A stretch of 64,000 nucleotides of DNA, taken from Spirochaetaceae bacterium. Its GTDB lineage: Bacteria > Spirochaetota > Spirochaetia > DSM-2461. The stretch is taken from the NCBI GenBank assembly GCA_965224705.1, contig OZ245056.1, positions 1,120,001 to 1,184,000 on the forward strand. Reading direction: 5' to 3'. Position numbers and translations under genes: made by a program. The notes under the pieces were generated by a model that made no database searches, was not told where the DNA came from, and was given only the letters and a program-made list of their open reading frames with translations. Positions 46,153 to 63,742 of this stretch are shown piece by piece (the first letter of the stretch is position 1; every line of letters starts with the position of its first letter).

Positions 46153-46790
46153 CAGGACAATCGCATCTAATTCTATCCCTGAAAAAATACGGAGTAACTC
46201 AAAGAATGTGGAATCTCCTAAAAGCGGGGATAAACCGCAGAGGACGCAGAGGTACGCAGAGAAATACCGCATGGAAAGATTGGTCAATATTTAACCGTGA
46301 ACACTCTGCGCTCTCTGCGGTAAAAAAACCCATGAATAAAGCTTTGAATATAGGAAGGGGGATAAACCGCAGAGGCACGCAGAGGTGCGTAGAGATACGT
46401 AGAGAGAAATATGGCATAAAAAGATTGGTCAATATCTACCGTGAACACTCTGCGCTCTCTGCGGTAAAAAAACCCATGAATAAGGCTTTGAATATAAGGA
46501 AAAGGGATAAACCGCAGGGGACGCAGAGGTGCGTAGAGATACGTAGAGAGAAATATGGCATAAAAAGATTGGTCAATACTTACCGTGAACACTCTGCGCT
46601 CTCTGCGTCCTCTGCGGTTAAAAAACTTATGAATAAAGCTTTGAATATATGGAAGAGGGATAAACCGCAGAGGACGCAGAGGTACGCAGAGAAATATGGC
46701 ATAAAAAGATTGGTCAATATCTACCGTGAACACTCTGCGCTCTCTGCGTCCTCTGCGGTTAAAAAACTTATAAATAATGCGTTGAATACA
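46153..46790 (+). repeat. ISAs1-like end followed by four tandem hairpin repeat units (132-153 bp period)
   Basis: caggacaatcgcatctaa at 46153-46170; gataaaccgcag unit starts at 46229, 46361, 46506 and 46659. Confidence 0.9.
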
Positions 46791-46870
46791 GGAAAAGTTT
46801 CCACTCGGTGTATGGACAAGAATTGCCGCGAAGTCCCTCCCGAGTCGCCTTCGTTTTTGCTGCTGCGGTG

Positions 46871-48235: not shown

Positions 48236-50525
48236 TCTTGCGTTTCTCCCCCGTTATGGACTCGACTTCTTCCCTAAAAAGTACTATATCCTTACGGCAA
48301 TTTTTTTCGATCTCCTCCAAAAGTGGTTTGACATCTTTGTTCTTCCATTTGTTTTTTTCAAGCCATATATAGAAATAAAATGCCAGATTGCAGTATGTTT
48401 CGCTAAACTTCCAATCGGATTTGTTCCACTCCAGAATTTTGTCGATCAACCCCGATTCGCGGAAGGCTGTCAGCACCAGATACCTCCGCAGGGAAGTGGC
48501 CCTCCACTCAGGCCAAAACTCATCCAGACTGAAATCGCTGCCCAAAAGATGCAGGGCTAACGCGTCTTTGATGTACTCGTTTATCTGCAAAAAGCTGAAA
48601 ATCGGAAACAGAGTGTGGGGCAAATCGTCGTCGTTTATCTGCTGTTCAAGTGATTCAATCAAGGACTTCCAGATTTTTAGGCGGACATCCTTAAGGGAGA
48701 GAAAACAGGCCTGAAGCGACAGGCCGATGGCCTTGTTTTTGGGGAGGGATGTTCCTCTTTTTCCCTGTAGTTTCGACAGTTCATCGGCCCTGTCCGGATT
48801 GTCTCCAAAATAAAAGACGAAACACTTTGTCCACCACGGCGATTTAAGATGCTTTGCGGCACTGCTGATATTGTCAATGCCGCGTCCGGCAAAGAACTCC
48901 TGCAAGAGGTGGTGGCTGAAGCTAATCTTTCCATCAATCTCCCGAACCAGCCGTGATCGCCGGATGATTTCATCGCACAATTGCCGGGTATTGGTCGTGT
49001 GTCCCCTCTCCGCAAGCTCCCTGCCAATCATGGCGTTGAAATCATCCGCAGGCATGTCCGTCCTTTCCTCTGTGTGCATCGTAAAGGCTATTTTCCTGAG
49101 CAAAAAGTCCTTTATCTCATGATGAAACTGGAATTTCATCCCCTTTTCTTTATCCCAGCGCTCCAGCATTATCTCGGTGAATTTCTTGAACAGTTCCGTC
49201 ACATTGGCGGGAATGTCCCGGTTTTCATACTCCGCCGTCCAGGCGAATATGGTAACCAGCAGTGGAGTCAGCTCAAAGCCGTGAATCTCCCTTATTCGGC
49301 TGAGAGTCTTGTCGGCATGGTGCAGAAGGAGTTCTTCATCGCTCCTTGCCAGGTGCTTTTTATTGCTCCGGAGGCTTCTGGAAACAATTTTTTTAGCCTG
49401 ATTCACACTCAACGCTTCAATGCTGTATGAGAGATTGAAAAACTCGCCATCATTGATGTTCTCCCCGGGTCGGGAGACGCATATAAGTCTGGTACGGGGA
49501 TATTGCGGCTTAAATTCCCGCACCAAAAACTGGAGAATCTTTTTGCGTGTTTCCGGTTCTGGTATTTCATCAAAAGCATCGACAAGCAGCATGACACGGC
49601 TCTGTTCAAAGATCTCTTTACTTATGAGAATTTCACCCGAAAGGCTCTTTGATACTTCGCCGCAAAACCCGATAAAATCATTCATGCCGCTGATATGTCC
49701 GTGCATCTCCTTAGCTTGTATAAGCAATGGGAGAATTTTGGATTTTGGTTCAGGATTTCTGGCGATAAGGTATGACAGGCGCCACAGCAGAGTGCTCTTT
49801 CCTGTGCCCGCGTCGGCCTGAATAAAAACATCTTCCTCTTTTTTTATCAGTTCTTTTTCCGTCAGTTCATCAAGCGAAAGCTTCTGCCCCTTCTTGCTGT
49901 CGGTTGTGTGCCTGTAGAGTTTCAATGATGTATAGGAATCGTCAGTAACATGGGTTGTGATAACATCATCCGGATCGAAACTTTCAACCCGTTTCTTGAT
50001 GGCATCATAGTATACAAAGACATCCGCCGTCATGCCCTTCCATACTTCGGGGCAGTGCTCATCGATGAGGGGTATCATATCCTCAATATCGAGGAAACGG
50101 ATGTTATGGCCCTGCAGTTCCTGGTCGATATAGTCGCGTGCGCGTTTGTTGATTGTGCCTCTGGCGCAAAGAATCACCTCGTCCGGTTTTCGCTTTGCCT
50201 TTTCCCCCGGCACATGCACGGGTGTGTCGGCGGCGGTCCGCAGCTGGCACACAAGATTGGCGGCATTGGAAGCCGGGTTCACCGCCATGCTAATCTTACC
50301 CTTCTTGGTCTGAACGGCGATCATCCTTTGTTGTTTCAGTTTGTCTTCTTCAATGAAAAGAATGTCTTTCCCCAACTCATCCGGGCCGTGGTTTTCTCTG
50401 GGATTCCTGTACCCCAGGGAAAGAAACAGAGTTCGCACCACGTCTTCACGGAATTTCTTTTCGTCCAATTCGCCAAGACGCTTCCTTTTTTCTTCCATTG
50501 GAACGGCGATCTTCGGGTAGTCCAT
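48222..50525 (-). CDS. Restriction-endonuclease-like (Mrr/PD-(D/E)XK) domain + NACHT/STAND NTPase
   Basis: HGPDELGKDI...IAVQTKKG nuclease motif, Walker A ADAGTGKST, Walker B LLVDAFDEI, TPLL, FSHHLLQEFFAG; GGAGG 7 nt before ATG 50525. Confidence 0.85.
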   Translation of the reverse strand: MDYPKIAVPMEEKRKRLGELDEKKFREDVVRTLFLSLGYRNPRENHGPDELGKDILFIEEDKLKQQRMIAVQTKKGKISMAVNPASNAANLVCQLRTAADTPVHVPGEKAKRKPDEVILCARGTINKRARDYIDQELQGHNIRFLDIEDMIPLIDEHCPEVWKGMTADVFVYYDAIKKRVESFDPDDVITTHVTDDSYTSLKLYRHTTDSKKGQKLSLDELTEKELIKKEEDVFIQADAGTGKSTLLWRLSYLIARNPEPKSKILPLLIQAKEMHGHISGMNDFIGFCGEVSKSLSGEILISKEIFEQSRVMLLVDAFDEIPEPETRKKILQFLVREFKPQYPRTRLICVSRPGENINDGEFFNLSYSIEALSVNQAKKIVSRSLRSNKKHLARSDEELLLHHADKTLSRIREIHGFELTPLLVTIFAWTAEYENRDIPANVTELFKKFTEIMLERWDKEKGMKFQFHHEIKDFLLRKIAFTMHTEERTDMPADDFNAMIGRELAERGHTTNTRQLCDEIIRRSRLVREIDGKISFSHHLLQEFFAGRGIDNISSAAKHLKSPWWTKCFVFYFGDNPDRADELSKLQGKRGTSLPKNKAIGLSLQACFLSLKDVRLKIWKSLIESLEQQINDDDLPHTLFPIFSFLQINEYIKDALALHLLGSDFSLDEFWPEWRATSLRRYLVLTAFRESGLIDKILEWNKSDWKFSETYCNLAFYFYIWLEKNKWKNKDVKPLLEEIEKNCRKDIVLFREEVESITGEKRKNAQS

Positions 50526-50631
50526 GTCCACGCCTCCATTTCCGCAAAAACTCCCGTCATCAATCAGTAATGACAGTCATCTGCCGATCACCTTGATTAT
50601 ACCAGGCAGAACAATGTCCCTTCAAGCAAGC

Positions 50632-51045: not shown

Positions 51046-51074
51046 TAGATAAAGCGGTCAAATCATGCTATGCT
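51046..51074 (+). promoter_or_regulatory. Putative sigma70 extended -10 promoter of AAA-nuclease copy 1 (equivalents precede copies 2-5)
   Basis: TAGATA-N17-TATGCT with TGn. Copy 2 has TAGATG (53163-53168)-N17-TATGTT (53186-53191). No Shine-Dalgarno before any ATG. Confidence 0.55.
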
Positions 51075-51084
51075 GAAAAGCATC

Positions 51085-52827
51085 ATGAAAAAGCTGGAAC
51101 AAGGCATCACTGAGTTCAAGGAATTTATCGATGAAAACTGCTACTTCGTCGATAAAACCCATCTTATCGGCTATCTCATCGACCACCCCAGCAAGGTTCA
51201 TTTAATCACCCGGCCCCGGCGCTTCGGCAAAACCCTGAACTTAAGCATGATCCGCTATTTCTTTGAGGCCCCCCCACCGGGCGGCAGTAGCGGCGATGTG
51301 CCGCCCAACGCCTCCCTTTTCGACGGCATGTCCATCACGGAACACCCCCGGTGCCGCGAGTTCATGGGACAGTATCCGGTAATCCACATCAGTTTCAAGG
51401 ACGTGAAAAAATCAACATTTGAGAAAAACCTGAATTTAATCAAAGATGTCATATCGGATGAATTCATCCGGCATGCTTATTTGCTGGAATGCGACTGCAT
51501 GTCAGCAAATGAGAAATCCTTTTTCAATAGAATCCTTCAAAAAGAAGCCGGGGAAGACGATTTCGAGAAATCAATCAAATACCTCTCCGCCTGGCTCCAC
51601 CGCGCCCACGGCAAACCACCCTACATCCTTCTGGACGAGTATGACACCCCCCTCCATTCGGCCCATGTGGATAAGTACTACGATCAGATGATCACCTTTA
51701 TCCGCAGCTTCATGGTGCAGACCTTCAAGGACAACCCCCATCTGAAACAGGCCGTGGTGATTGGCATATTGAAAGTTGCCCAGGAAAGCATATTCAGCGA
51801 TTTTAACAATCCCAGGGTCAGTACATTGCTGGATCCGGAAATTGAAGACAGCTTTGGGTTCACCGAGTCCGAGGTAGAGGCCATGACCGCCTACTTCGGA
51901 CTGGAAGACGAAATGGAAGGCATAAAAGAATGGTACAACGGCTACCTCTTCGGCGGTGATACCGTCATCTACAATCCATGGAGCATAGTCAGTTTTCTTA
52001 GCCGCCCCAGGGCCGGATTGAAACCCCACTGGATAGGCACCAGCGACAACAGGCTGATCAAGGATGTCATCAATTTAGACCGCCGGGAAGCCAAAATGAC
52101 AATAGAAAAACTCCTGCGGAAGGAGGAAGTCCGTAAACCCCTGCTGACCAACATCCCCTACCCTCAGGTGGAAAGCGACCCCGATGTGGTATGGAGCTTT
52201 CTTCTTCACAGCGGCTACCTGAAGGCCTCCGAGAGGCAGCAGGAACACAGGGACATAACATGGCGGCTTTCCATTCCCAACCTGGAGGTGGAAACCGCCT
52301 GGATTACCGTTATTTCCCGCTGGCTAAAGGAAGACATCAAAATAAACGAACACTTCACGGACTTTGTCACCGGCATCCAGGAAGTCAGTCCCCGGCACAT
52401 AGAACGGGGACTGTCCCGGATCCTTCGCGGCTTGGCTAGCTACCATGATACGGCCAGGAGCAAAGAGGAGGGGGAAGACGAGGAATCCAGACGGGAAAAC
52501 TTCTACCACGGTCTGGTACTGGGACTTCTGGCCTGCCTGAGCCCGGCTTATGCCGTTGAGAGCAACCGGGAATATGGTGAGGGCCGCCCGGACATCGTGG
52601 TACTCAAGAAGGGAAACAATCCGGCCCAGGCCGAGGAAGCCGTTCTGCTGGAATTCAAACATGGAACAGCGAAGGACGGCAAAGCCCTGGAAGATTTAGC
52701 CCGTGAAGCCCATACCCAGGCGGTAATGAAGTACATGGACGGAGTAAGGAACAAATGGCATCCGCAGCGGCTGCTTGTTCTGGGGGCGGGGTTCAAGGGC
52801 AGGGAACTGGCGGTTTTTTACGATTGA
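51085..52827 (+). CDS. AAA-ATPase-like (PF09820-type) + PD-(D/E)XK nuclease (PF08011-type) protein, copy 1
   Basis: YFVDKT, Walker A RPRRFGKT, Walker B LLDEYD, WYNGY, YNPWS, SNREYGEGRPDI...LEFK; 580 aa. Confidence 0.92.
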   Translation: MKKLEQGITEFKEFIDENCYFVDKTHLIGYLIDHPSKVHLITRPRRFGKTLNLSMIRYFFEAPPPGGSSGDVPPNASLFDGMSITEHPRCREFMGQYPVIHISFKDVKKSTFEKNLNLIKDVISDEFIRHAYLLECDCMSANEKSFFNRILQKEAGEDDFEKSIKYLSAWLHRAHGKPPYILLDEYDTPLHSAHVDKYYDQMITFIRSFMVQTFKDNPHLKQAVVIGILKVAQESIFSDFNNPRVSTLLDPEIEDSFGFTESEVEAMTAYFGLEDEMEGIKEWYNGYLFGGDTVIYNPWSIVSFLSRPRAGLKPHWIGTSDNRLIKDVINLDRREAKMTIEKLLRKEEVRKPLLTNIPYPQVESDPDVVWSFLLHSGYLKASERQQEHRDITWRLSIPNLEVETAWITVISRWLKEDIKINEHFTDFVTGIQEVSPRHIERGLSRILRGLASYHDTARSKEEGEDEESRRENFYHGLVLGLLACLSPAYAVESNREYGEGRPDIVVLKKGNNPAQAEEAVLLEFKHGTAKDGKALEDLAREAHTQAVMKYMDGVRNKWHPQRLLVLGAGFKGRELAVFYD

Positions 52828-53200
52828 TAAGCTCCGATAATGCCGACTTAAACCCCCGAATTTTTGGATTTCTGGGGTGTGAAATGCTATTGTCACGATT
52901 AAACGTCAATATGCGTGAGCCAGGTTCAATAAACCCATGAATAAGGCTCTTTGAGTATATGAAAGGGGATAAACCGCAGAGGACGCAGAGGTACGCAGAG
53001 AAATACAGCATAGAAAGATTGGTCAACACTTACCGTGAACACTCTGCGCTCTCTGCGGTTATAAAAAAAGGATTCTTCAGCTTTGCGTTCATCCAAAGCC
53101 CCCCCGCAACCACAGAGCCACCACCTCCGTGCCTCCGTGAGCCCCCCCTCCACACCCCCGTATAGATGAAACAGCCAAACCATGCTATGTTTAGTATGGC
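52828..53200 (+). repeat. Conserved inter-copy spacer with one hairpin unit (repeated at 54947-55337, 57084-57474, 59221-59629)
   Basis: 373/391/391/409 bp. Spacers 2 and 3 appear identical; spacer 1 lacks two 9-bp microrepeats. Confidence 0.92.
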
Positions 53201-54946
53201 ATGGAAAAGAATCTGACTCAGGGCATCACCGATTTCAAGAAATTCATCGACAATGATTGTTACTTTGTCGATAAAACCCGTCTCATAGAACATCTTATCA
53301 ATGACCCCAGCGAAGTGCACCTTATCACCCGACCCCGGCGCTTCGGCAAAACCCTGAACTTAAGCATGATCCGCTATTTCTTTGAGGCCCCCCCACCGGG
53401 CGGCAGCAGCGGCGATTTGCCGCCCAACGCCTCCCTTTTCGACGGCATGTCCGTCACGGAACACCCCCGGTGCCGCGAATACATGGGGCAGTATCCGGTT
53501 ATTCATTTGAGCTTTAAGGATGCCAAGGGGGCATCATTCAATGAGTGTATGGAGATAATCAGGGATATGCTCTCTATGGAATACCAGCGGCATGAATACT
53601 TACAAAATTGCGGAGTGCTGCGCGAGGCCGATAAAGAACTGTTTTCCAGAATATTGAACCGAAACAGCACCAACAACGACTGCACCCAATCCATCAAACA
53701 CCTCTCCTTCTGGCTCCACCGCGCCTACGGCAAACCACCCTACATCCTTCTCGACGAGTACGACACGCCCCTGCATTCGGCCCATGTGGACAGGTACTAC
53801 GACCAGATGATCACCTTCATCCGCAGCTTCATGGTGCAGACCTTCAAGGACAACCCCCACCTGAAACAGGCCGTGGTAATCGGCATATTAAAAGTTGCTC
53901 AGGAGAGTATATTCAGCGACTTCAACAATCCCAGTGTGTCCACCATCCTTTCCTCGGCCATGAAGGACTGCTTTGGTTTCACCGAAGCGGAAGTGGAGGC
54001 AATGGCCGCTTACTTTGGACTGGAAGACGCAATGGAGGGCATAAAAGAATGGTACAACGGCTACCTCTTCGGCGGGGACACCGTCATCTACAATCCATGG
54101 AGCATCGTCAACTATCTGCGCTCACCCGAGGAAGGGTTAACACCCCACTGGATAGGCACCAGCGACAACAGGCTGATCAAGGATGTCATCCAATTAGACC
54201 GCCGGGAAGCCAAGATGACCATAGAAAAACTCCTGCGGAAGGAAGAAGTCCGCAAACCCCTGCTGACCAACATTCCCTACCCTCAGGTGGAAAGCGACCC
54301 GGACGTAGTATGGAGCTTTTTACTCCACAGCGGCTACCTGAAGGCCTCCGAGAGGCGGCAGGAACACAGGGACATAACATGGCGGCTCTCCATTCCCAAT
54401 CTGGAGGTGGAAACCGCCTGGATTACCGTTATTTCCCGCTGGCTTAAGGAAGACATCAAGATAAACGAACACTTCACGGACTTTGTCACCGGCATACAGG
54501 AAGCCAGTCCCCGGCACATAGAACGGGGACTGTCCCGAATTCTTCGCGGCTTGGCCAGCTACCATGATACGGCCAGGAGCAAAGAGGAGGGGGAAGACGA
54601 GGAATCCAGACGGGAAAACTTCTACCACGGTCTGGTACTGGGACTTCTGGCCTGCCTGAGCCCGGCGTATGCCGTTGAGAGCAACCGGGAATATGGTGAG
54701 GGCCGCCCGGACATCGTGGTACTCAAGAAGGGAAACAATCCGGCCCAGGCCGAGGAAGCCGTTCTGCTGGAATTCAAACATGGAACAGCGAAGGACGGCA
54801 AAGCCCTGGAAGATTTAGCCCGTGAAGCCCATACCCAGGCGGTAACGAAGTACATGGACGGAGTAAGGAACAAATGGCATCCGCAGCGGCTGCTTGTTCT
54901 GGGGGTAGGGTTTAGGGGCAGGGAACTGGCGGTTTTTTATGATTGA
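53201..54946 (+). CDS. AAA-ATPase-like + PD-(D/E)XK nuclease protein, copy 2
   Basis: Same motifs intact; 581 aa. Confidence 0.92.
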   Translation: MEKNLTQGITDFKKFIDNDCYFVDKTRLIEHLINDPSEVHLITRPRRFGKTLNLSMIRYFFEAPPPGGSSGDLPPNASLFDGMSVTEHPRCREYMGQYPVIHLSFKDAKGASFNECMEIIRDMLSMEYQRHEYLQNCGVLREADKELFSRILNRNSTNNDCTQSIKHLSFWLHRAYGKPPYILLDEYDTPLHSAHVDRYYDQMITFIRSFMVQTFKDNPHLKQAVVIGILKVAQESIFSDFNNPSVSTILSSAMKDCFGFTEAEVEAMAAYFGLEDAMEGIKEWYNGYLFGGDTVIYNPWSIVNYLRSPEEGLTPHWIGTSDNRLIKDVIQLDRREAKMTIEKLLRKEEVRKPLLTNIPYPQVESDPDVVWSFLLHSGYLKASERRQEHRDITWRLSIPNLEVETAWITVISRWLKEDIKINEHFTDFVTGIQEASPRHIERGLSRILRGLASYHDTARSKEEGEDEESRRENFYHGLVLGLLACLSPAYAVESNREYGEGRPDIVVLKKGNNPAQAEEAVLLEFKHGTAKDGKALEDLAREAHTQAVTKYMDGVRNKWHPQRLLVLGVGFRGRELAVFYD

Positions 54947-55337
54947 TAAGCTCCGATAATGCCGACTTAAACCCCCGAATTTTTGGATTTCTGGGGTGTG
55001 AAATGCTATTGTCACGATTAAACATCAATATGCGTGAGCCAGGTTCAATAAACCCATGAATAAGGCTCTTTGAGTATATGAAAGGGGATAAACCGCAGAG
55101 GACGCAGAGGTACGCAGAGAAATACAGCATAGAAAGATTGGTCAACACTTACCGTGAACACTCTGCGCTCTCTGCGTCCTCTGCGGTTATAAAAAAAGGA
55201 TTCTTCAGCTTTGCGTTCATCCAAAGCCCCCCCGCAACCACAGAGCCACCACCTCCGTGCCCTCCGTGCCTCCGTGAGCCCCCCCTCCACACCCCCGTAT
55301 AGATGAAACAGCCAAACCATGCTATGTTTAGTATGGC

Positions 55338-57083
55338 ATGGAAAAGAATCTGACTCAGGGCATCACCGATTTCAAGAAATTCATCGACAATGATTGTTAC
55401 TTTGTCGATAAAACCCGTCTCATAGAACATCTTATCAATGACCCCAGCGAAGTGCACCTTATCACCCGGCCCCGTCGCTTCGGCAAAACCCTGAACTTAA
55501 GCATGATCCGCTACTTCTTTGAGGCCCCGCTGCCGGACGGCGGCAACACTGACGCACCGCCCAATGCCTCCCTTTTCGACGGCATGTCCGTCACGGAACA
55601 CCCCCGGCACCGCGAATACATGGGGCAGTATCCGGTGATTCATTTGAGCTTCAAGAATGTAAAAAGTCCTTCCCATGAGAACAGCATGCATCTCATTCAA
55701 TCCTGCCTGGCCGATGAATTCAGAAGGCATAATTATTTGAAAGACAGCGGCTGCCTCGCTGAAGAGGAATTGACATTGTTCAACAGGATTATCAGGCGCG
55801 AAGGATCGGAACAGGACTGCGCGGAATCCCTTCCTCTCCTCTCCGCCTGGCTCCACCGCGCCTACGGCAAACCACCCTACATCCTTCTCGACGAGTATGA
55901 CACGCCCCTGCATTCGGCCCATGTGGACAGGTACTACGACCAGATGATCACCTTCATCCGCAGCTTCATGGTGCAGACCTTCAAGGACAACCCCCACCTG
56001 AAACAGGCCGTGGTAATCGGCATATTAAAAGTTGCTCAGGAGAGTATATTCAGCGACTTCAACAATCCCAGGGTCAGCACATTGCTGGATCCGGAAATAG
56101 AAGACAGCTTTGGCTTTACCGAGTCCGAGGTAGAAGCCATGACAGCCTACTTTGGACTGGAAGACGAAATGAAGGGCATAAGAGAATGGTACAACGGCTA
56201 CCTCTTCGGCGGGGACACCGTTATCTACAACCCCTGGAGCATAGTCAGTTTTCTTAGCTGCCCCAGGGCCGGACTGAAACCCCACTGGATAGGCACCAGC
56301 GACAACAGGCTGATCAAGGATGTCATCCAATTAGACCGCCGGGAAGCCAAAATGACCATAGAAAAACTCCTGCGGAAGGAAGAAGTCCGCAAACCCCTGT
56401 TGACCAACATCCCCTACCCTCAGGTAGAAAGCGACCCCGATGTGGTATGGAGCTTTCTTCTTCACAGCGGCTACCTGAAGGCCTCCGAGAGGCAGCAAGA
56501 ACACAGGGACATAACATGGCGGCTTTCCATTCCCAACCTGGAGGTGGAAACCGCCTGGATTACCGTTATTTCCCGCTGGCTTAAGGAAGACATCAAGATA
56601 AACGAACACTTCACGGACTTCGTCACCGGCATACAGGAAGCCAGTCCCCGGCACATAGAACGGGGACTGTCCCGCATTCTTCGCGGCTTGGCCAGCTACC
56701 ATGATACGGCCAGGAGTAAAGAGGAGTGGGAGGACGAGGAATCCAGACGGGAGAACTTCTATCACGGCCTGGTACTGGGTCTTCTGGCCTGCCTGAGCCC
56801 GGCTTATGCCGTTGAGAGCAACCGGGAATACGGTGAGGGCCGCCCGGACATCGTGGTGGTCAAGAAGGGAAACAATCCGGCCCAGGCCGAGGAAGCCGTT
56901 CTGCTGGAATTCAAACATGGAACAGCGAAGGACGGCAAAGCCCTGGAAGATTTAGCCCGTGAAGCCCATACCCAGGCGGTAACGAAGTACATGGACGGAG
57001 TAAGGAACAAATGGCATCCGCAGCGGCTGCTTGTTCTGGGGGTAGGGTTTAGGGGCAGGGAACTGGCGGTTTTTTATGATTGA
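55338..57083 (+). CDS. AAA-ATPase-like + PD-(D/E)XK nuclease protein, copy 3
   Basis: Same motifs intact; 581 aa; starts 2137 bp after copy 2. Confidence 0.92.
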   Translation: MEKNLTQGITDFKKFIDNDCYFVDKTRLIEHLINDPSEVHLITRPRRFGKTLNLSMIRYFFEAPLPDGGNTDAPPNASLFDGMSVTEHPRHREYMGQYPVIHLSFKNVKSPSHENSMHLIQSCLADEFRRHNYLKDSGCLAEEELTLFNRIIRREGSEQDCAESLPLLSAWLHRAYGKPPYILLDEYDTPLHSAHVDRYYDQMITFIRSFMVQTFKDNPHLKQAVVIGILKVAQESIFSDFNNPRVSTLLDPEIEDSFGFTESEVEAMTAYFGLEDEMKGIREWYNGYLFGGDTVIYNPWSIVSFLSCPRAGLKPHWIGTSDNRLIKDVIQLDRREAKMTIEKLLRKEEVRKPLLTNIPYPQVESDPDVVWSFLLHSGYLKASERQQEHRDITWRLSIPNLEVETAWITVISRWLKEDIKINEHFTDFVTGIQEASPRHIERGLSRILRGLASYHDTARSKEEWEDEESRRENFYHGLVLGLLACLSPAYAVESNREYGEGRPDIVVVKKGNNPAQAEEAVLLEFKHGTAKDGKALEDLAREAHTQAVTKYMDGVRNKWHPQRLLVLGVGFRGRELAVFYD

Positions 57084-57474
57084 TAAGCTCCGATAATGCC
57101 GACTTAAACCCCCGAATTTTTGGATTTCTGGGGTGTGAAATGCTATTGTCACGATTAAACATCAATATGCGTGAGCCAGGTTCAATAAACCCATGAATAA
57201 GGCTCTTTGAGTATATGAAAGGGGATAAACCGCAGAGGACGCAGAGGTACGCAGAGAAATACAGCATAGAAAGATTGGTCAACACTTACCGTGAACACTC
57301 TGCGCTCTCTGCGTCCTCTGCGGTTATAAAAAAAGGATTCTTCAGCTTTGCGTTCATCCAAAGCCCCCCCGCAACCACAGAGCCACCACCTCCGTGCCCT
57401 CCGTGCCTCCGTGAGCCCCCCCTCCACACCCCCGTATAGATGAAACAGCCAAACCATGCTATGTTTAGTATGGC

Positions 57475-59220
57475 ATGGAAAAGAATCTGACTCAGGGCAT
57501 CACCGATTTCAAGAAATTCATCGACAATGATTGTTACTTTGTCGATAAAACCCGTCTCATAGAACATCTTATCAATGACCCCAGCGAAGTGCACCTCATC
57601 ACCCGTCCCCGTCGCTTCGGCAAAACCCTGAATTTAAGCATGATCCGCTATTTCTTTGAGGCCCCGCTGCCGGGCGGCAGCAGCGGCGATGTGCCGCCCA
57701 ACGCCTCCCTTTTCGACGGCATGTCCATCACGGAACACCCCCGGTGCCGCGAGTTCATGGGACAGTATCCGGTTATTCATTTGAGCTTTAAGGATGTTAA
57801 AAACAACGCATACAGCAAAGCAATCAACCTTGTCCGAGAAGTCATTGCCATTGAATTCAACAGGCATGGATATCTAACCGAACAAGGATTCTTAAACAGC
57901 CGGGAAGAAATTTTCTTCACAAGCATAGTCAATCAGGAAGGTACAGACGAGGACTATGCAAAATCCATCAAGTGGCTCTCCGCCTGGCTCCACCGCGCCC
58001 ACGGCAAACCACCCTACATCCTTCTGGACGAGTATGACACCCCCCTGCATTCGGCCCATGTGGATAAGTACTACGATCAGATGATCACCTTTATCCGCAG
58101 CTTCATGGTGCAGACCTTCAAGGACAACCCCCACCTGAAACAGGCCGTGGTGATCGGCATATTGAAAGTTGCTCAGGAAAGTATATTCAGCGACTTTAAC
58201 AATCCCAGGGTCAGTACATTGCTGGACCCGGAAATTGAAGACACTTTCGGGTTCACAGAATCCGAAGTGGAAACCATGGCCGCCTACTTTGGACTGGAAG
58301 ACGAGATGGATGGCATAAGAGAATGGTACAACGGCTACCTCTTCGGCGGGGACACCGTCATCTACAATCCGTGGAGCATCGTTAGCTTTCTTGGCCGCCC
58401 CAGGGCCGGGCTGAAACCCCACTGGATAGGCACCAGCGACAACAGGCTAATCAAGGATGTCATCCAATTAGACCGCCGGGAAGCCAAGATGACCATAGAA
58501 AGACTCCTGCGGAAGGAAGAAGTCCGCAAACCCCTGTTGACCAACATTCCCTACCCTCAGGTAGAAAGCGACCCCGATGTTGTATGGAGCTTTCTTCTTC
58601 ACAGCGGCTACCTGAAGGCCTCCGAAAGGCAGCAGGAACACAGGGACATAACATGGCGGCTCGCCATTCCCAACCTGGAGGTGGAAACCGCCTGGATTAC
58701 CGTTATTTCCCGCTGGCTAAAGGAAGATATCAAGATAAACGAACACTTCACGGACTTCGTCACCGGCATACAGGAAGCCAGTCCCCGGCACATAGAACGG
58801 GGGCTTTCCCGCATCCTTCGCGGTTTGACCAGCTACCATGATACGGCCAGGAGTAAAGAGGAGTGGGAGGACGAGGAATCCAGACGGGAGAACTTCTACC
58901 ACGGCCTGGTACTGGGTCTTCTGGCCTGCCTGAGCCCGGCATATATCGTTGAGAGCAACCGGGAATATGGTGAGGGCCGTCCGGACATCGTGGTACTCAA
59001 GAAGGGAAACAATCCAACCCAGGCCGAGGAAGCCGTCCTTTTGGAGTTCAAACATGGGAACGCGAAGGACGGCAAGGCCCTGGAAGATTTAGCCCGTGAA
59101 GCCCATACCCAGGCGGTAGAAAAATACCTGGACGGGGTCAGAGAAAAGTGGCATCCTGAGCGCCTGCTTGTTCTGGGAGCAGGGTTTAAGGGCAGGGAAC
59201 TGGCGGTTTTTTATGATTGA
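57475..59220 (+). CDS. AAA-ATPase-like + PD-(D/E)XK nuclease protein, copy 4
   Basis: Same motifs intact; 581 aa; starts 2137 bp after copy 3. Confidence 0.92.
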   Translation: MEKNLTQGITDFKKFIDNDCYFVDKTRLIEHLINDPSEVHLITRPRRFGKTLNLSMIRYFFEAPLPGGSSGDVPPNASLFDGMSITEHPRCREFMGQYPVIHLSFKDVKNNAYSKAINLVREVIAIEFNRHGYLTEQGFLNSREEIFFTSIVNQEGTDEDYAKSIKWLSAWLHRAHGKPPYILLDEYDTPLHSAHVDKYYDQMITFIRSFMVQTFKDNPHLKQAVVIGILKVAQESIFSDFNNPRVSTLLDPEIEDTFGFTESEVETMAAYFGLEDEMDGIREWYNGYLFGGDTVIYNPWSIVSFLGRPRAGLKPHWIGTSDNRLIKDVIQLDRREAKMTIERLLRKEEVRKPLLTNIPYPQVESDPDVVWSFLLHSGYLKASERQQEHRDITWRLAIPNLEVETAWITVISRWLKEDIKINEHFTDFVTGIQEASPRHIERGLSRILRGLTSYHDTARSKEEWEDEESRRENFYHGLVLGLLACLSPAYIVESNREYGEGRPDIVVLKKGNNPTQAEEAVLLEFKHGNAKDGKALEDLAREAHTQAVEKYLDGVREKWHPERLLVLGAGFKGRELAVFYD

Positions 59221-59629
59221 TAAGCTCCGATAATGCCGACTTAAGCCCCCGAATTTTTTGGATTTCTGGGGTGTGAAATGCTATTGTCACGATTAAACGT
59301 CAATATGCGAGAGCCAAATTCAATAAACCCATGAATAAGGCTCTTTGAATACATGGAAAAGGGATAAACCGCAGAGGACGCAGAGGCACGCAGAGAAATA
59401 CAGGATAGAAAGATTAGTCAATACTTACCGTGAACACTTTGCGCTCTCTGCGTCCTCTGCGGTTATAAAAAAAAGAGGATTCTTCAGCTTTGCGTTCATC
59501 TCAAGCCCCCGTACGAAAGCCCCCCCGCACCAGATGCCGCCACCTCCGTGCCCTCCGTGCCTCCGTGAGCCCCCCCCTCCACACCCCCGTATAGATGAAA
59601 CAGCCAAACCATGCTATGTTAAAAGCATC

Positions 59630-61375
59630 ATGAAAAAGAAACTGACTCAAGGTATTACTGATTTCAAAGAATTCATCGACAACGACTGCTATTTTGTCGA
59701 TAAAACCCATCTTATCGCGCACCTTATCGACGACCCCAGCAAGGTCCATTTAATTACCCGCCCCCGGCGCTTTGGAAAAACCTTGAATCTGAGCATGATC
59801 CGCCACTTCCTGGAAGCCCCCCTGCCCACTCCCCAAGACCAGAATTCCCACACATCGTTCACAACTCCCAATGCTTACCTTTTTGAGAATCTTGCAATCG
59901 CCTCCCATCCGCGCTGCGCCGAGTTCATGGGGCAGTATCCGGTTATTCATTTGAGCTTCAAGAATGTGAAAAGTCCTTCCCAGGAGAACAGCATGCGTCT
60001 CATTCAATCCTGCCTGGCCGATGAATTCAGAAGGCATAATTATTTGAAAGACAGAGACTGCCTCGCTGAAGAGGAATTGACATTGTTCAACTGGATTCTC
60101 AGGCGCAAGGGATCTGAACAGGACTGTGCGGAAGCCCTTCGTCAACTCTCCGCATGGCTCCACCGCGCCTACGGCAAACCACCCTACATCCTTCTGGACG
60201 AGTACGACACCCCCCTCCATTCGGCCCATGTGGATAACTACTACGACCAGATGATCGCCTTCATCCGCAGCTTCATGGTGCAGACCTTCAAGGACAACCC
60301 CCACCTGAAACAGGCCGTGGTAATCGGCATATTGAAAATTGCCCAGGAGAGCATATTCAGCGACTTTAACAATCCCAGGGTGAACACATTGCTGGATCCG
60401 GAAATTGAAGACACATTCGGGTTCACAGAATCCGAGGTGGAAACCATGACCGCTCACTTTGGTCTGGAAAATACCATGGATGGTATAAAAAAATGGTACA
60501 ACGGCTACCTCTTCGGCGGAGAAACCGTCATCTACAATCCCTGGAGCATCGTCAGTTTTCTTAGTCGTCCCAAAGCCGGTCTGCACCCGCACTGGATAAG
60601 CACCAGCGACAACAGACTCGTCAAGGAAGTCATCAAACTAAAGCGCCGGGATGCGAAAATGACAACAGAAAAACTTCTACGGAAAGAGGAAGTGCGCAAG
60701 CCGCTCTTGACCAACATTCCCTACACCCAGATAGAAAATGATCCGGATGTGGTATGGAGTTTCCTTCTCCACAGCGGCTACCTCAAAGCTTCCGACATGC
60801 ACCAGGAAGAACTGGGAACCAGCTGGCGGCTCTCCATACCCAACAAAGAATTGGAAACGGCCTGGAAGACTGTGGTGCTGAACTGGCTGAAGGAGGATCT
60901 GTCCATCAACGAGGATTTTACGGACTTTATCAGCGGCATCAGAGAAGCCAATCCCAGGCTGATTGAACGCGGCCTGAAGCGAATCCTGTTTGGCCTGGCC
61001 AGTTATTACGATAGCGCGCGGGACGAGGAGGATAGGCGGGAAAACTTCTACCATGGTCTTGTACTGGGTCTTCTGGCCTATCTTGGCCCGGCCTATACCG
61101 TGGACAGCAACCGGGAGTATGGGAGAGGCCGCTCGGACATTGTGGTGGTCAGAAAGGGAAGCGATCCTGCCCAGGCCGAGGAGGCTTTTGTGTTCGAATT
61201 CAAGCAGGGAAACACCGATGCTGATACCTCACTGGAAGTGCTGGCCCAGGCTGCTTATGCCCAGGCGGTGGAGGGATACCTTGGCGGAGTCAGGGAGAAA
61301 TGGCATCCGAAGGAATTGTTGGTTCTGGGAATTGGTTTCCGGGGGAAAGACTTGTCCCTGTATTGCGAGGCATGA
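59630..61375 (+). CDS. AAA-ATPase-like + PD-(D/E)XK nuclease protein, copy 5 (divergent C-terminal half)
   Basis: ATG 59630 assigned by homology; 581 aa; SNREYGRGRSDI...FEFK. Confidence 0.92.
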   Translation: MKKKLTQGITDFKEFIDNDCYFVDKTHLIAHLIDDPSKVHLITRPRRFGKTLNLSMIRHFLEAPLPTPQDQNSHTSFTTPNAYLFENLAIASHPRCAEFMGQYPVIHLSFKNVKSPSQENSMRLIQSCLADEFRRHNYLKDRDCLAEEELTLFNWILRRKGSEQDCAEALRQLSAWLHRAYGKPPYILLDEYDTPLHSAHVDNYYDQMIAFIRSFMVQTFKDNPHLKQAVVIGILKIAQESIFSDFNNPRVNTLLDPEIEDTFGFTESEVETMTAHFGLENTMDGIKKWYNGYLFGGETVIYNPWSIVSFLSRPKAGLHPHWISTSDNRLVKEVIKLKRRDAKMTTEKLLRKEEVRKPLLTNIPYTQIENDPDVVWSFLLHSGYLKASDMHQEELGTSWRLSIPNKELETAWKTVVLNWLKEDLSINEDFTDFISGIREANPRLIERGLKRILFGLASYYDSARDEEDRRENFYHGLVLGLLAYLGPAYTVDSNREYGRGRSDIVVVRKGSDPAQAEEAFVFEFKQGNTDADTSLEVLAQAAYAQAVEGYLGGVREKWHPKELLVLGIGFRGKDLSLYCEA

Positions 61376-61494
61376 TTTGACGGATGATTGATGAATTGTG
61401 AATCTTCCGGGGCTGTGTCAGGACGAAGGATTTGGTTCATCCGTAGACTTCCCCTCTTTACGAGCTTCCATAGCGCACTCCGTGTAAATCCGTG

Positions 61495-62178
61495 TCATCT
61501 GCGGTTACAAAACCCATGAATAAGGCTCTTTGAGTATATGAAAGGGGGATAAACCGCAGAGGACGCAGAGGTACGCAGAGAAATGAAGCATAGAAAGATT
61601 GGTCAATACTTACCGTGAACACTCTGCGCTCTCTGCGTCCTCTGCGGTTATAAAAAGAAAAGAGGATTCTTCAGCTTTGCGCTCATCTCAAGGCCCCGTG
61701 CGAAAGCCCCCCCATAACCAGAGCCACCACCTCCGTGCCCTCCGTGCCTCCGTGAGAGACACACCCCAGAATCATTGTTTTTCATTTTTGGGGGACTTGT
61801 AATTGGCTTCTAACGTGAACACTCTACGCTCTCTGCGGTTACAAAACTCATGAATAAGCCTCTTTGAGTATATGAAAGAGGGATAAACCGCAGAGGACGC
61901 AGAGAAATACAGCATAGAAAGATTGGTCAATACTTACCGTGAACACTCTGCGCTCTCTGCGTCCTCTGCGGTTATAAAAAGAGAGGATTCTTCAGCTTTG
62001 CGTTCATCCAAAGCCCCCCGCAACCCAGGCCACCACCTCCGTGTCCTCCGTGCCTCCGTGAGAGACACCCCAGAATCGTTGTTTTTGATTTCTAGGGCAC
62101 TTGTAATTGGCTTCTAACGCGAACACTCTGCGTCCTCTGCGGTTACAAAACCCATGAATAAGGCTCTTTGAGTATATG
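61495..62178 (+). repeat. Mosaic cluster of hairpin units and linker modules
   Basis: Full units at 61548 and 61882, half units near 61813 and 62118, cctccgtg linkers; higher-order period about 334 bp. Confidence 0.9.
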
Positions 62179-62269
62179 AGTTGTAATATTGTTGTTAGGC
62201 GTGGCCGCCTTGTCCACAGCAAAATCTGCCTTATTGGGCACATTCTTATGGCGGTGTGCGGGGGTGCCT

Positions 62270-62536
62270 TCAGAGCTTTTCGATCTCTTCTTCGCTTAGG
62301 CCGGTGGCCTTGATGATGAGTTCCATGTCGGCTCCGGCGGCTTTTAATCGCCTGGCTGTTTGCATTATACCCTCTTCCCTGCCATCGTTCCAGGATTCAT
62401 CCAGGCCGCTTAGATAATCCCTTCTCCATTTCTCTTTGGCTTCCAGCCTGTCAAGCATGGCTTGATCGGCAGTGAATGTTGTGTAGAGTTTATGGGCCTC
62501 CTGAATATATGGGTTGTCTCCCAATAGCACGGGCAT
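62270..62536 (-). CDS. Predicted intragenic small C-terminal Rpn protein (RpnS-like, 88 aa)
   Basis: AAGGAGG (62542-62548) lies 5 nt before an in-frame ATG (62536) inside the Rpn gene. Confidence 0.65.
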   Translation of the reverse strand: MPVLLGDNPYIQEAHKLYTTFTADQAMLDRLEAKEKWRRDYLSGLDESWNDGREEGIMQTARRLKAAGADMELIIKATGLSEEEIEKL

Positions 62537-63124
62537 CTCGTCCTCCTTCAAATAACCTTCGTACTTAAAAAAATAGCACCATCGTTCAAAGTCGCTTCCA
62601 ATAGCCAGGTGGGCTTCATCGGGAAATGTCATTTTCGAGAGTTCCATGAACATGATGTACAGATGGTCGGTCAAGACCTGTTCGGGATGATCCATTTCGG
62701 TAAGTTGAAAGCAGGTGTGGTACTCCTCCAGTTGTGGAAAAAGGGGCTCGCCAACCAGATTGATGCAAATAACCGGATTGAGTCTGGAGTAGGCCTCTGA
62801 TTCACGCAGTTGGTTCTGGTAGTTTTTTGCCCAGTATAACAGACTTCGATTGGCAAAATACTTGCCGGTGGAGATCTGTATCTCAACGTTAATGATGCGA
62901 TTGCGGCTGTCTCTTGCCTTGACATCCAGTATAGTTTCCCTGTCGCTGAAGTATTCTTTCAGGTTGTAGGGGTTGAGTATATCGACGCTGGTGACCGGGC
63001 CTAATTCCTTTGGAGTTAAAAATGCATTGATAAAATTCGTCAGCAGGCTGGTGTTTTTCTCATCGCCCAGAAGGGCACGGGCAAACAAGTCAGACAGCGG
63101 ATCGAATGGTCTGGTTGTTTCCAT
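62270..63124 (-). CDS. Rpn-family recombination-promoting nuclease / PD-(D/E)XK putative transposase (PDDEXK_2)
   Basis: PLSDLFA, ILDVKARD, INVEIQ, RSLLYWAKNY, C-terminal GREEG...IIKATGLSEEEIEKL. Confidence 0.92.
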   Translation of the reverse strand: METTRPFDPLSDLFARALLGDEKNTSLLTNFINAFLTPKELGPVTSVDILNPYNLKEYFSDRETILDVKARDSRNRIINVEIQISTGKYFANRSLLYWAKNYQNQLRESEAYSRLNPVICINLVGEPLFPQLEEYHTCFQLTEMDHPEQVLTDHLYIMFMELSKMTFPDEAHLAIGSDFERWCYFFKYEGYLKEDEMPVLLGDNPYIQEAHKLYTTFTADQAMLDRLEAKEKWRRDYLSGLDESWNDGREEGIMQTARRLKAAGADMELIIKATGLSEEEIEKL

Positions 63125-63130
63125 GATTTT

Positions 63131-63159
63131 ACATTACGGGAGTTTTGGCATTTATGCAA
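63131..63159 (-). promoter_or_regulatory. Putative leaderless sigma70 promoter of the Rpn gene
   Basis: TTGCAT (63154-63159)-N17-TAATGT (63131-63136), 6 nt before the ATG; no Shine-Dalgarno. Confidence 0.55.
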
Positions 63160-63189
63160 GGGATGTCTTAGCGTGAAGGGTGAAGTGTG

Positions 63190-63742
63190 AAGCCCCCCTG
63201 CAATCCAGAGCCACCACCTCCGTGTCCTCCGTGCCTCCGTGAGAGACACACCCCAGAATCATTGTTTTTCATTTTTAGGGGACTTGTAATTGGCTTCTAC
63301 CGTGAACACTCTGCGTTCTCTGCGGTTACAAAACCCATGAATAAGGCTCTTTGAGTATATGGAAGGGGGATAAACCGCAGAGGACGCAGAGGTACGCAGA
63401 GAAATGTAGCATAGAAGGATTGGTCGATACTTACCGTGAACACTCTGCGCTTTCTGCGGTTACAAAACCTATGAATAAGGCTCTTTGAGTATATGAAAGA
63501 GGGATAAACCGCAGAGGACGCAGAGAAATACAGCATAGAAAGATTGGTCCATACTTACTGTGAACACTCTGCGCTCTCTGCGGTTAAAAACTTATGAATA
63601 AGGCTCTTTGAGTATATGAAAGGGGGATAAACCGCAGAGGTATGCAGAGAAATGCAGCATAGAAAGATTGGTCGATACTTACCGCGAACACTCTGCGCTC
63701 TCTGCGGTTAAAAAACCCATGAATAAGGCTCTTTGAGTATAT
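63190..63742 (+). repeat. Linker module, half unit and three tandem hairpin units
   Basis: gataaaccgcag at 63369, 63503 and 63626. Confidence 0.9.

Follow-up and report, generated by a model that had tools for sequence, protein, structure and literature searches.

A tandem array of DUF1703 genes

The window analysed here is a 64,000-nt stretch of contig OZ245056.1 from a Spirochaetaceae bacterium. It contains five intact DUF1703 genes arranged head-to-tail, all on the + strand. Copy 1 (51085..52827) codes for a protein of 580 aa, and copies 2 to 5 (53201..54946, 55338..57083, 57475..59220 and 59630..61375) code for proteins of 581 aa. The nuclease chassis belongs to class 1 in copies 1-4 and to class 2 in copy 5. 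A sequence-only reading had described five such genes with a period of exactly 2137 bp for copies 2-4, and the ORF coordinates bear this out (in-register spacings of 2119, 2137, 2137 and 2170). The two spacers within copies 2-4 are each 391 nt long and identical to each other. A REP-like palindromic element lies in spacer 1 (52968..53057, strand not assigned), with further copies at 55087-55176, 57224-57313, 59363-59452 and 61548-61637. It is not specific to the array, because the motif has 135 matches genome-wide. An extended -10-like element (51066..51074, + strand) sits about 10 nt upstream of the copy 1 start, and similar elements precede most paralogues. Inspection by eye revealed no obvious Shine-Dalgarno sequence upstream of the paralogues. 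The copies probably carry their own promoter and a short leader. A NACHT-Mrr nuclease gene and an AlbA2-RecG-C gene adjoin the array.

DUF1703 proteins combine an N-terminal PF09820 domain (AAA-ATPase_like) with a C-terminal PF08011 nuclease (PDDEXK_9), as described by Knizewski et al. in 2007 (PMC1913061, consulted in part). Copies 2 and 5 scored 149 and 148 bits for PF09820 (cut-off 26.1) and 37.6 and 43 bits for PF08011 (cut-off 25.5). In copy 2, Walker A (RPRRFGKT, residues 44-51) lies at 53330..53353, Walker B (DEYD, residues 185-188) at 53753..53764 and the PD-(D/E)XK nuclease domain (E472, H476, E497, D504, E524, K526, Q546) at 54596..54943, all on the + strand.

The array is part of a 44-copy family

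The five genes are not a local system: they belong to a genome-wide expansion of 44 intact DUF1703 paralogues at 24 loci. Walker A (RPRRFGK[TS]), Walker B (DEYD) and nuclease residues E472, E497, D504, E524 and K526 are intact in all 44 full-length paralogues, extending what had been claimed for the five. By the motifs of PMC1913061, the motif I Glu is present in 44/44 and the motif IV Gln in 42/44. A wider alignment of 142 sequences retained E472 and E497 throughout and H476 in 124. No two of the 44 paralogues reach 97% identity. There are also about ten fragment loci.

We found no conserved partner gene across the DUF1703 loci and no CifA-like partner gene at them. The proteins have no N-terminal extension and open directly with the conserved ATPase motif. 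Copies 2 and 5 matched no PADLOC family, and the protein had no NCBIfam or PHROG match. Defence genes lay near 5 of 20 loci and 1 of 17 control stretches (P=0.13; P = 0.045 only with two loci added by hand), an excess to be read with the caveat that accessory regions draw mobile genes of all kinds. Methyltransferase genes occurred near 2 of the 20 loci, each paired with its own nuclease gene. In a filled/empty-site comparison, the flanks of all four loci compared were not syntenic in genome G009.

The wider family comprises 7,053 clusters (50% identity, E <= 1e-10) and is found in free-living and gut bacteria of many phyla. Its distribution is patchy, with members in 22 of 151 genomes of a phylum sample and 8 of 41 relatives. 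Similar arrays occur in the single-contig genomes G001, G009, G015 and G079. In another family, the members of a three-gene array are 0.91-0.94 identical in the nuclease and 0.25-0.30 in the cassette, and the G015 arrays vary at the insert and the wing. Distant arrays are thus variable at the same site as the window array.

A 61-residue cassette and other swapped modules

Each gene in the array carries a 61-aa cassette, encoded on the + strand at 51400..51582 (allele K1, copy 1), 53519..53701 (K2, copy 2), 55656..55838 (K3, copy 3), 57793..57975 (K4, copy 4) and 59963..60145 (K3', copy 5, 93% identical in nucleotides to the copy 3 cassette). Four very different alleles of identical length had been proposed for these positions, and we recovered them, K3 being common to copies 3 and 5. 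Outside the cassette, amino acid identity was 0.917-0.944 among copies 1-4, which had been called nearly identical, and 0.74-0.77 between copy 5 and copies 1-4. Inside the cassette it was 0.28-0.41 (30-41% within copies 1-4), except for copies 3 and 5 (0.84). Identity between those two was 0.82-1.0 over residues ~90 to 255, beyond the cassette bounds. The cassettes are AT-rich relative to the remaining gene, as had been suspected (GC 0.37-0.48 vs 0.52-0.54), but the first 120 nt of the array genes are equally so (0.41-0.42).

The idea that the genes differ mainly in this one segment holds only in part. The cassette is the most variable block, but other modules are swapped too: a loop (61-100), lid segments 248-256 and 301-313, and a wing (384-415) are also allelic. 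The lid segments co-vary, carry an acidic/basic swap and set copy 2 apart from copies 1, 3 and 4 (second swapped block of the lid domain, 53942..54139, + strand). The winged-helix wing region of copy 2 (54350..54445, + strand) comprises hairpin 381-397 and module 384-415, and this module is also swapped in other paralogues and related arrays.

Across the family the insert is the least conserved region (0.23 identity in 118 distant representatives). Of 120 close homologues, 119 have an insert of 61 aa. Buried positions remain hydrophobic while those between them vary, D+E equals or exceeds K+R in 20 of 20 representatives, and two conserved lysines, K106 and K109, mark the base of the insert. 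K2 is the largest class in the genome; the K1 class recurs at two other loci and in G001, and the K4 class at three other loci and in G001 and G009. Hybrids within the cassette occur at the central ExxRHxYL motif.

The cassette is predicted to be a helical insert in a STAND-like ATPase

The model of copy 2 (pLDDT 91.5) assigns all 581 aa to an ATPase, a lid, a winged helix, a helical linker and the nuclease, and includes no C-terminal repeat sensor domain. Helices 113-130, 132-136, 142-152 and 158-176 follow strand 100-104 and precede the Walker B strand (181-185). By its secondary structure, this confident model places the cassette as a helical insert following strand 2, in the HEH/ISM position of a STAND/Orc1-Cdc6-type ATPase, the equivalence to the ISM being topological. 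Its helical surfaces are of mixed charge. In the parts of the sources consulted, a HEH insert after strand 2 is a hallmark of the STAND/Orc-Cdc6 clade (PMC12839542), and origin specificity of archaeal Orc1 is set by ISM and wing residues (PMC3089459).

The top structural matches were two archaeal ATPases, 2qen with a Z score of 18.1 (rmsd 3.9) and 2fna with one of 16.4 (rmsd 4.2), each with 304 aligned residues and spanning residues 3-409. NLR/CED-4 proteins (Z 14-15) and ORC2 (1w5t; Z 12.7, rmsd 4.9, 309 aligned) came next; TnsC was also among the matches, and Avs3 (8dgc) scored Z 10.9. The best solved match of the nuclease domain was CinB (7et0, Z 11.2, rmsd 3.2, 130 aligned). No conserved Arg precedes strand 5 (arginine finger, box VII) across the 142 sequences; residues 238-244 of the protein read FSDFNNP, and an R/K is found at position 231, after strand 4.

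Cassettes have been exchanged between chassis

Among 146 pairs with near-identical chassis, 79 had divergent cassettes. Cassette and chassis trees rejected each other (AU p <= 0.0013), and all three tested gene segments were mutually incongruent. Seven of the eight multi-member cassette classes occur on more than one nuclease class, and an identical set of five cassette classes is found on nuclease class 1 and on class 2. The constant chassis that had been postulated from the array, with a helical insert that can be swapped between the two Walker motifs, is therefore upheld. Judged by these trees, the cassette alleles are a shuffled palette whose module has moved between chassis.

Neighbouring copies mostly differ in the cassette. 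Adjacent copies share the nuclease in 33 of 35 cases, the wing in 29 and the cassette in 6, and copies at distance two share the cassette in 12 of 18. A permutation test gave 3 observed adjacent-same cassettes against 8.4 expected (P=0.008), a value that overstates the effect because one event can amplify a two-gene unit. Three genomes have arrays with ABAB alternation, in which alleles are repeated. Class K2 lies next to five or more different classes, and many copies stand alone.

The alleles are old and conserved

Between alleles, synonymous sites are saturated (pS 0.70-0.97). Within alleles, dN/dS across genomes was 0.07-0.25 in 25 of 27 pairs, picked by protein similarity, and 0.55 in two; the chassis gave 0.10-0.18. 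At pS 0.25-0.55, unselected pN was 0.10-0.17 in the cassette and 0.04-0.10 in the Walker B block. No pS bin had pN above pS. Of the 120 top homologues, 118 have an allele at least 65% identical to one already in this genome; for two of the four allele classes of G001, this genome holds nothing close. Genomes at gidA pS 0.22 or 0.77 from this one retain K1, K4 and a third class. These comparisons show the alleles to be ancient, under purifying selection and conserved across species. The array had been called diversifying, and in the sense of fast new alleles this is not supported. Saturated synonymous sites, low dN/dS and allele movement together indicate a shuffled palette, not a hypermutating cassette.

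Interpretation and alternatives

We tentatively favor, at somewhat under an even chance, the reading that these proteins act in conflicts as ATP-gated nucleases and that gene conversion resets their specificity, much as restriction enzymes swap recognition domains. Model and gene context show each protein to be a stand-alone STAND/Orc1-Cdc6-type ATPase whose lid and winged helix lead into a PD-(D/E)XK nuclease, and they show neither a separate sensor domain nor a partner gene. Homologous recombination between paralogues, anchored in flanking conserved motifs, would carry old cassettes between chassis. The tree comparisons show the paralogues to be mosaic, and the mechanism is probably of the RecA type. 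Selection would maintain a palette of distinct, individually conserved alleles that presumably differ in function. The resting protein would sit in an ATP-gated off state until the insert, assisted by the lid and wing modules, engages a ligand and licenses the nuclease, which would attack either the DNA of an invader or the infected cell itself. With such a palette, more kinds of invader would be sensed, just as swapped recognition domains achieve in restriction-modification genes.

We infer both the ligand and an anti-phage role, for which the nearby defence genes are only suggestive. The ligand is slightly more probably a protein, given that the cassettes carry a net acidic charge and that STANDs are the nearest folds; recognition of DNA shape or sequence, as for the Orc1 ISM plus wing, is nearly as probable. 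The acidic composition argues against direct binding of the DNA backbone. With dN/dS never above 1 and mostly shared alleles, an invader arms race fits less well than a stable palette. A broader proposal, which we consider rather unlikely, is that DUF1703 proteins are widespread, unrecognised sensor-less STAND immune nucleases. Recognition would lie in the HEH/ISM insert of the ATPase, the lid and the wing serving as secondary dials. Gene conversion would re-deal recognition among dozens of copies, drawing on a trans-species palette; tandem arrays would be selected for side-by-side different specificities.

Neutral concerted evolution is unlikely but the strongest alternative. Conversion would homogenise the conserved parts, while a tolerant insert, diverged long ago and now too different for piecemeal conversion, would hitch-hike as alleles without distinct functions. 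The gene-wide mosaicism, the conversion tracts running past the cassette in copies 3 and 5, the low conservation of the insert, the lack of detected positive selection and the hybrids at ExxRHxYL all agree with it. Whole-cassette replacement should, however, drift alleles to loss, and K1, K4 and the third class persist at the gidA distances given above. Single-unit unequal crossover also predicts AAB or ABB runs, against the rarity of shared cassettes beside shared nucleases in neighbours, and most within-allele dN/dS values are as low as those of the chassis.

Only a little less probable is a selfish DNA-targeting element, a one-gene mobile or recombination-promoting nuclease of the CR-ATPase/REase type. 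As in Orc1 or TnsC, its ISM and wing would grip a DNA target; the nuclease would then cut, repair would spread or shuffle copies, and a new cassette would mean a new target. Such an element would explain the scattered, partnerless loci with a promoter-like element of their own, the patchy distribution and the ORC/Cdc6 and TnsC matches. Both DNA-contacting elements of Orc1 are swapped modules here, K106 and K109 are conserved, and a related architecture is called mobile and Medea1-like in the part of PMC11342252 consulted. We saw by eye no terminal repeats or target duplications at the gene ends, however, and the cassettes are net acidic. All 44 full-length copies also keep their catalytic residues under purifying selection, albeit alongside the fragment loci.

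The cassette could instead be a subunit-compatibility code that decides which of the 44 paralogues co-assemble, with alternating neighbours forming mixed oligomers or avoiding mutual poisoning. We regard this as improbable: the ABAB alternation, the oligomerising STANDs among the nearest folds and the mixed-charge helical surfaces agree with it, but allele pairing is not fixed, given the many neighbours of K2 and the solitary copies, and the box VII arginine is missing, consistent with what we consulted of PMC1913061. More improbable still is a family of host-directed effectors in an animal-associated bacterium, Medea1- or Wolbachia CifB-like, with cassettes matching host targets. The CinB match points that way, as do a DUF1703 gene in Medea, expansions in Cardinium and Rickettsia (PMC6387759, consulted in part) and the origin of 8 of the 14 runs containing window sequence in mollusc metagenomes (two studies); the absence of an N-terminal extension and of a CifA-like partner, and the spread of the family through free-living and gut bacteria, speak against it.

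A mis-joined repeat is very improbable: no public contig among those listed spans the five-copy array and the two spacers are identical, but each copy has many private differences (6-8% of residues outside the cassette), arrays of the same type occur in the four single-contig genomes, and an independent run contains pieces of K4 (2 differences) and of K3' (1 difference). We rejected two further candidates. Antigenic variation of the vls/msp2 type uses one expression locus and promoterless donor cassettes, and here a -10-like element precedes most of the 44 full-length genes, beside which we found only scattered fragments. A diversity-generating retroelement calls for adenine-specific variation against a non-coding template repeat; A-involving mismatches were 0.60 in close cassettes vs 0.53 in the chassis (C/T 0.29), and cassette DNA matched only family genes or one fragment.

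For this very large family, described in 2007, no function has been demonstrated; links have been drawn with Medea and with how the Wolbachia CifB nucleases arose. Module swapping hints at where its target choice may sit and makes function testable. Natural near-isogenic pairs that differ almost only in the 61-aa module provide a ready-made swap comparison and name the surface of interest. If the insert sets specificity, a STAND-type receptor that lacks a repeat sensor would have a new route to diversification.

Comparison with known systems

Avs/AVAST proteins and bacterial NLRs are antiviral STAND nucleases. The DUF1703 proteins resemble Avs/AVAST in joining a STAND-type ATPase to a nuclease effector, but they lack a TPR/WD40/LRR sensor, carry the nuclease at the C-terminus and have no PADLOC match.

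The array had been put forward as a candidate for an undescribed system, which it is not. Siozios et al. (2019, PMC6387759) reported a DUF1703 expansion of 25 copies with intragenic recombination in Cardinium cCpun. It shares with ours the two domains, the RPRRFGK[TS] Walker A, the DEYD Walker B, the E..D..ExK..Q nuclease and the multi-copy expansion. Here there are 44 intact copies, the chassis is homogenised, and the insert keeps old trans-species alleles that differ between neighbours. The consulted parts of that paper report recombination but not homogenisation; breakpoint columns are absent from its RDP4 table. We found no mapping of the swapped module in DUF1703 in the published literature.

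The CR-ATPase8 + CR-REase7 elements, the Tribolium Medea1 DUF1703 gene and the CifB nucleases (PMC11342252) are a further point of comparison. By the published description, as far as we consulted it, the likeness lies in an ATPase followed by an REase, with a His after the first catalytic Glu and a Glu on the first strand (E472xxxH476, E497). That source places the His three residues downstream, whereas here three residues lie between E472 and H476. Our proteins differ in lacking an N-terminal delivery domain and a CifA partner and in being a cell-autonomous bacterial expansion.

PAB2304 (2qen), SSO1545 (2fna) and Orc1/Cdc6 share the NTPase, the strand-2 helical insert, the lid and the winged helix (residues 3-420). 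In DUF1703 the insert has four helices and 61 aa and is net acidic, a nuclease is fused, and the arginine finger before strand 5 of canonical Orc/Cdc6 is absent. The Type III mod genes of Helicobacter pylori, in which target recognition domains move (Furuta and Kobayashi 2012, PMC3467074, consulted in part), include a methyltransferase, unlike the genes here, where the moving module lies inside an ATPase and its role in specificity is putative. In both, a variable domain moves between non-orthologous loci via flanking conserved motifs, trees are incongruent and alleles are found across species.

A five-gene DUF1703 array

The array consists of five intact, head-to-tail genes at 51085-52827, 53201-54946, 55338-57083, 57475-59220 and 59630-61375 (copies 1-5). 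Both copies that we tested by profile search matched PF09820 and PF08011 above cut-off. The array genes are therefore DUF1703 proteins (family as in the available text of PMC1913061). The sequence-only reading had described five intact genes differing mainly in one segment, with a period of exactly 2137 bp for copies 2-4, and both points held. The in-register spacings are 2119, 2137, 2137 and 2170, and copies 1-4 are 91.7-94.4% identical to one another outside residues 107-167. Over the same residues copy 5 is 74-77% identical to copies 1-4. Within residues 107-167 (the cassette), identity between copies is 28-41%, with the exception of copies 3 and 5 (84%).

A -10-like element lies about 10 nt upstream of the start codon in most of the 44 full-length paralogues of this genome (for example at 51066-51084), and no Shine-Dalgarno sequence is obvious upstream of them. 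These upstream regions suggest near-leaderless transcripts. All 30 bins were covered in two RNA-library runs, most spacer bins at low depth; contig depth pools the 44 paralogues, so expression level cannot be read from it. REP-like palindromic repeats in tandem units of 124-153 nt occupy 46226-46833, the spacers within 52968-61637, and 61811-63721. This motif has 135 matches genome-wide, concentrated at 1.0-1.2 Mb, and is abundant in the compared genome G001 too. DNA 3' of gidA in the closest relative (L025, G009:C1:705000-722000) maps elsewhere in our genome, which places the array-bearing block at a synteny break.

The family across the genome

The 3.0-Mb single-contig genome, apparently that of a spirochaete, encodes 44 full-length DUF1703 paralogues at 24 loci, plus fragments. 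Walker A, Walker B and the acidic and lysine residues of the nuclease are intact in all 44, and no pair reaches at least 97% identity. We found no conserved partner gene across the 24 loci. The family is present in 8/41 relatives and in 22/151 genomes of a phylum sample. Short repeats of the nuclease gene's last ~65 codons stand behind several arrays (L122, L134 and L139, at 506.8-507.5, 1645.7-1645.9 and 2215.4-2215.6 kb of the genome) and are probably relics of slipped duplication. A MITE-like repeat of ~165 nt adjoins two DUF1703 loci (L029:6707-6873 and L031:3923-4099) and is multi-copy in G009 at 86-96% identity.

The cassette as a predicted helical insert

A structure model from a 142-sequence alignment (pLDDT 91.5) agrees with the earlier proposal of a swappable helical insert between Walker A and Walker B. 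Strand 2 (100-104) is followed by four helices over 113-176 and the Walker B strand (181-185). Beyond these lie the lid, the winged helix, whose hairpin spans 381-397, and the nuclease. The best structural matches were 2qen (Z 18.1, rmsd 3.9, 304 aligned) and 2fna (Z 16.4), followed by NLR and CED-4 cores (Z 14-15) and ORC2 (Z 12.7). The nuclease matched CinB (Z 11.2, 130 aligned). Foldseek ranked ORC1 and BrxC highest, as weak matches (E 2.5e-4 to 5e-4). We found no arginine finger. Across 20 allele representatives, hydrophobic character is kept at buried positions, variation lies at the positions between, and in all 20 D+E equals or exceeds K+R.

By topology, the HEH insert would correspond to the ISM. 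According to the available text of PMC12839542, the STAND/ORC-Cdc6 clade is marked by a helical (HEH) insert behind strand 2, and that of PMC8195603 assigns STANDs to the CDC6/Orc clade, citing an origin from a transposase. In archaeal Orc1, origin specificity is shaped by both the ISM and the wing (PMC3089459, available text). Sequence searches of solved structures returned nothing significant (best E 0.16 with a single sequence, 0.25 with a profile), a viral fold search gave no matches at E <= 0.001, and NCBIfam, PHROGs and PADLOC gave no family for the DUF1703 protein. Residues 95-185 fell in unnamed or PF09820 clusters only in the ESM Atlas, and a search for literature on the 2fna/2qen insert found nothing useful.

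Cassettes move between chassis

We compared cassettes with the rest of the protein (the chassis) among the 44 paralogues. Near-identical downstream chassis were combined with divergent cassettes in 79/146 pairs, and near-identical cassettes with divergent chassis in 6/36. We built trees of the cassette, of residues 168-322 and of residues 323-578 for 63 genes of three genomes (one truncated G009 gene being excluded here and from the neighbour and pN/pS comparisons). AU tests show conflict between every two of these segments (p <= 0.0013), and mosaicism is therefore gene-wide. Differences above 30% occur in 39-65% of 184 close pairs in windows over residues 101-165, and elsewhere in 36% at 301-315, 22% at 241-255, 19% at 61-75 and 9% at the wing. 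The cassette is thus the peak of this mosaicism, but variation is not confined there: the lid, 61-75 and wing windows vary too.

Of the eight cassette classes with several members, seven are found on two or more nuclease classes, and both chassis classes of the array come with the same set of five cassette classes. The match between copies 3 and 5 spans about residues 90-255, past the cassette edge, and hybrid cassettes are joined at the central ExxRHxYL motif. These tracts and hybrids fit homologous conversion with conserved coding motifs as its anchors, rather than a site-specific recombinase, as the process that would move cassettes. Two lid segments (53942-53968 and 54101-54139 in copy 2) lie 50 residues apart and vary together in charge: where the first is acidic the second is basic, and vice versa, with few exceptions among the 63 genes.

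Alleles are old and constrained

Synonymous differences per site (pS) between the window's alleles are 0.70-0.97. Within allele classes across genomes, dN/dS was 0.07-0.25 in 25/27 pairs and 0.55 in two, for pairs chosen by protein similarity; the chassis of the same pairs gave 0.10-0.18. In pairs taken without such selection, median pN (nonsynonymous) was far below pS in every bin and no bin indicated positive selection, but at intermediate pS the cassette had a higher pN than the Walker B block. The insert is 61 aa long in 119 of the 120 top homologues (13 of them from our genome), and 118 match an allele of our genome at 65% or more. Two of four G001 allele classes have no close match in our genome. 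Alleles K1 and K4 are common to both genomes (gidA pS 0.77), and their pS of 0.4-0.6 leaves room for lateral exchange, which may have occurred.

A silent cassette library was rejected as the source of variation. DGR-type adenine-biased variation was also rejected, as cassette mismatches have no adenine bias. Together with the age and constraint of the alleles and the homologue matches, this argues for a largely shared palette and not for hypermutation. The pattern first seen in the array is real and family-wide, and conserved surface modules shuffled as a palette describe it better than a local hypervariable cassette does.

Adjacent copies differ in their cassettes

Among 17 arrays from three genomes, adjacent copies carry the same nuclease in 33/35 cases, the same wing in 29/35, the same lid in 19/35 and the same cassette in 6/35. 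Copies at distance two share a cassette in 12/18. In the eight arrays of three or more genes, adjacent copies had the same cassette 3 times, where 8.4 were expected; the P value of 0.008 is overstated, since a single event can amplify a two-gene unit. In a four-gene G001 array (L013:4962-12156), two alleles of the cassette and two of the wing occur in each combination once.

A scan of 91 distant loci found a family gene at 88 and two or more at 11; 8 loci supplied pairs above 60% identity, among them L117, which has no score. In the L113 array, from another family, nuclease identity is 0.91-0.94 and cassette identity 0.25-0.30 in 3/3 pairs. Arrays in genome G015 vary at insert and wing, and cassettes are identical in the L114 and L119 arrays. 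Distant arrays thus tend to have their variation at the same place.

Genomic context

Near-full-length defence matches (Type II RM, Cas3, HEC-01A, SspH-like and PD-Lambda-5) were found at 5/20 DUF1703 loci vs 1/17 control stretches (P=0.13), a suggestive context. One of 145 neighbour proteins and 3/20 control stretches were excluded, and by judgement housekeeping matches (ABC ATPases, sigma54 activators, MotB, cysteine desulfurase and intron-type RTs) were not scored as defence in either set. The array is closely preceded by two overlapping minus-strand genes, one for a 769-aa Mrr-type nuclease with NACHT (48222-50531) and one for a 408-aa AlbA_2 + RecG-C protein (47009-48235). A 772-aa relative, 24% identical to the NACHT-Mrr protein, adjoins another DUF1703 locus at 1.533 Mb. 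Tandem Rpn/YhgA-like PD-(D/E)XK genes (TIGR01784; 12 copies in the genome) lie at 62270-63124 (minus strand) and from ~63770 onward. The gene at 43523-46042 (minus strand) encodes a lipoprotein-like protein of 839 aa that carries fibronectin type III repeats in tandem, and it has relatives at several other loci.

Possible functions and relation to known systems

The reading that we tentatively prefer, at somewhat under even chances, is that these proteins are ATP-gated conflict nucleases. The nuclease would be held under ATP gating, the insert would carry most of the target specificity and respond to a ligand, gene conversion would re-deal inserts between copies, and the role would be defence. 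Neutral concerted evolution, with exchange serving no such specificity, is unlikely but the leading rival. A selfish DNA-targeting element is slightly less probable; an empty-site comparison for mobility met only loci without synteny. A subunit-sorting code, in which inserts would govern which copies assemble, is improbable. A host-directed effector is more doubtful again; mollusc metagenomes from two studies make up 8/14 public runs with part of the stretch. An assembly artefact is barely credible. Public read data gave short contigs only, none covering the whole array.

The available text of Siozios et al. 2019 (PMC6387759) reports 25 paralogues in Cardinium with intragenic recombination and scattered expansions, links the family to Medea and calls its function unknown; the head row of its RDP4 table, as available, has no breakpoints. 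Our literature search, with thin coverage of subscription journals, found no paper mapping a swapped module or testing DUF1703 function. An AAA-ATPase-like domain in cifB is described in the accessible part of PMC12445526. That of PMC11342252 ties together the CR-ATPase8/CR-REase7, Medea1 and CifB nucleases, whose signature residues are present in the DUF1703 proteins here. RADAR, PARIS and Old-tin ATPases share PF09820 matches but have other architectures (PMC10952713, in the text available). The parallel that we draw for cassette conversion is with the H. pylori mod genes, whose target recognition domains are re-dealt between genes (PMC3467074, available text).
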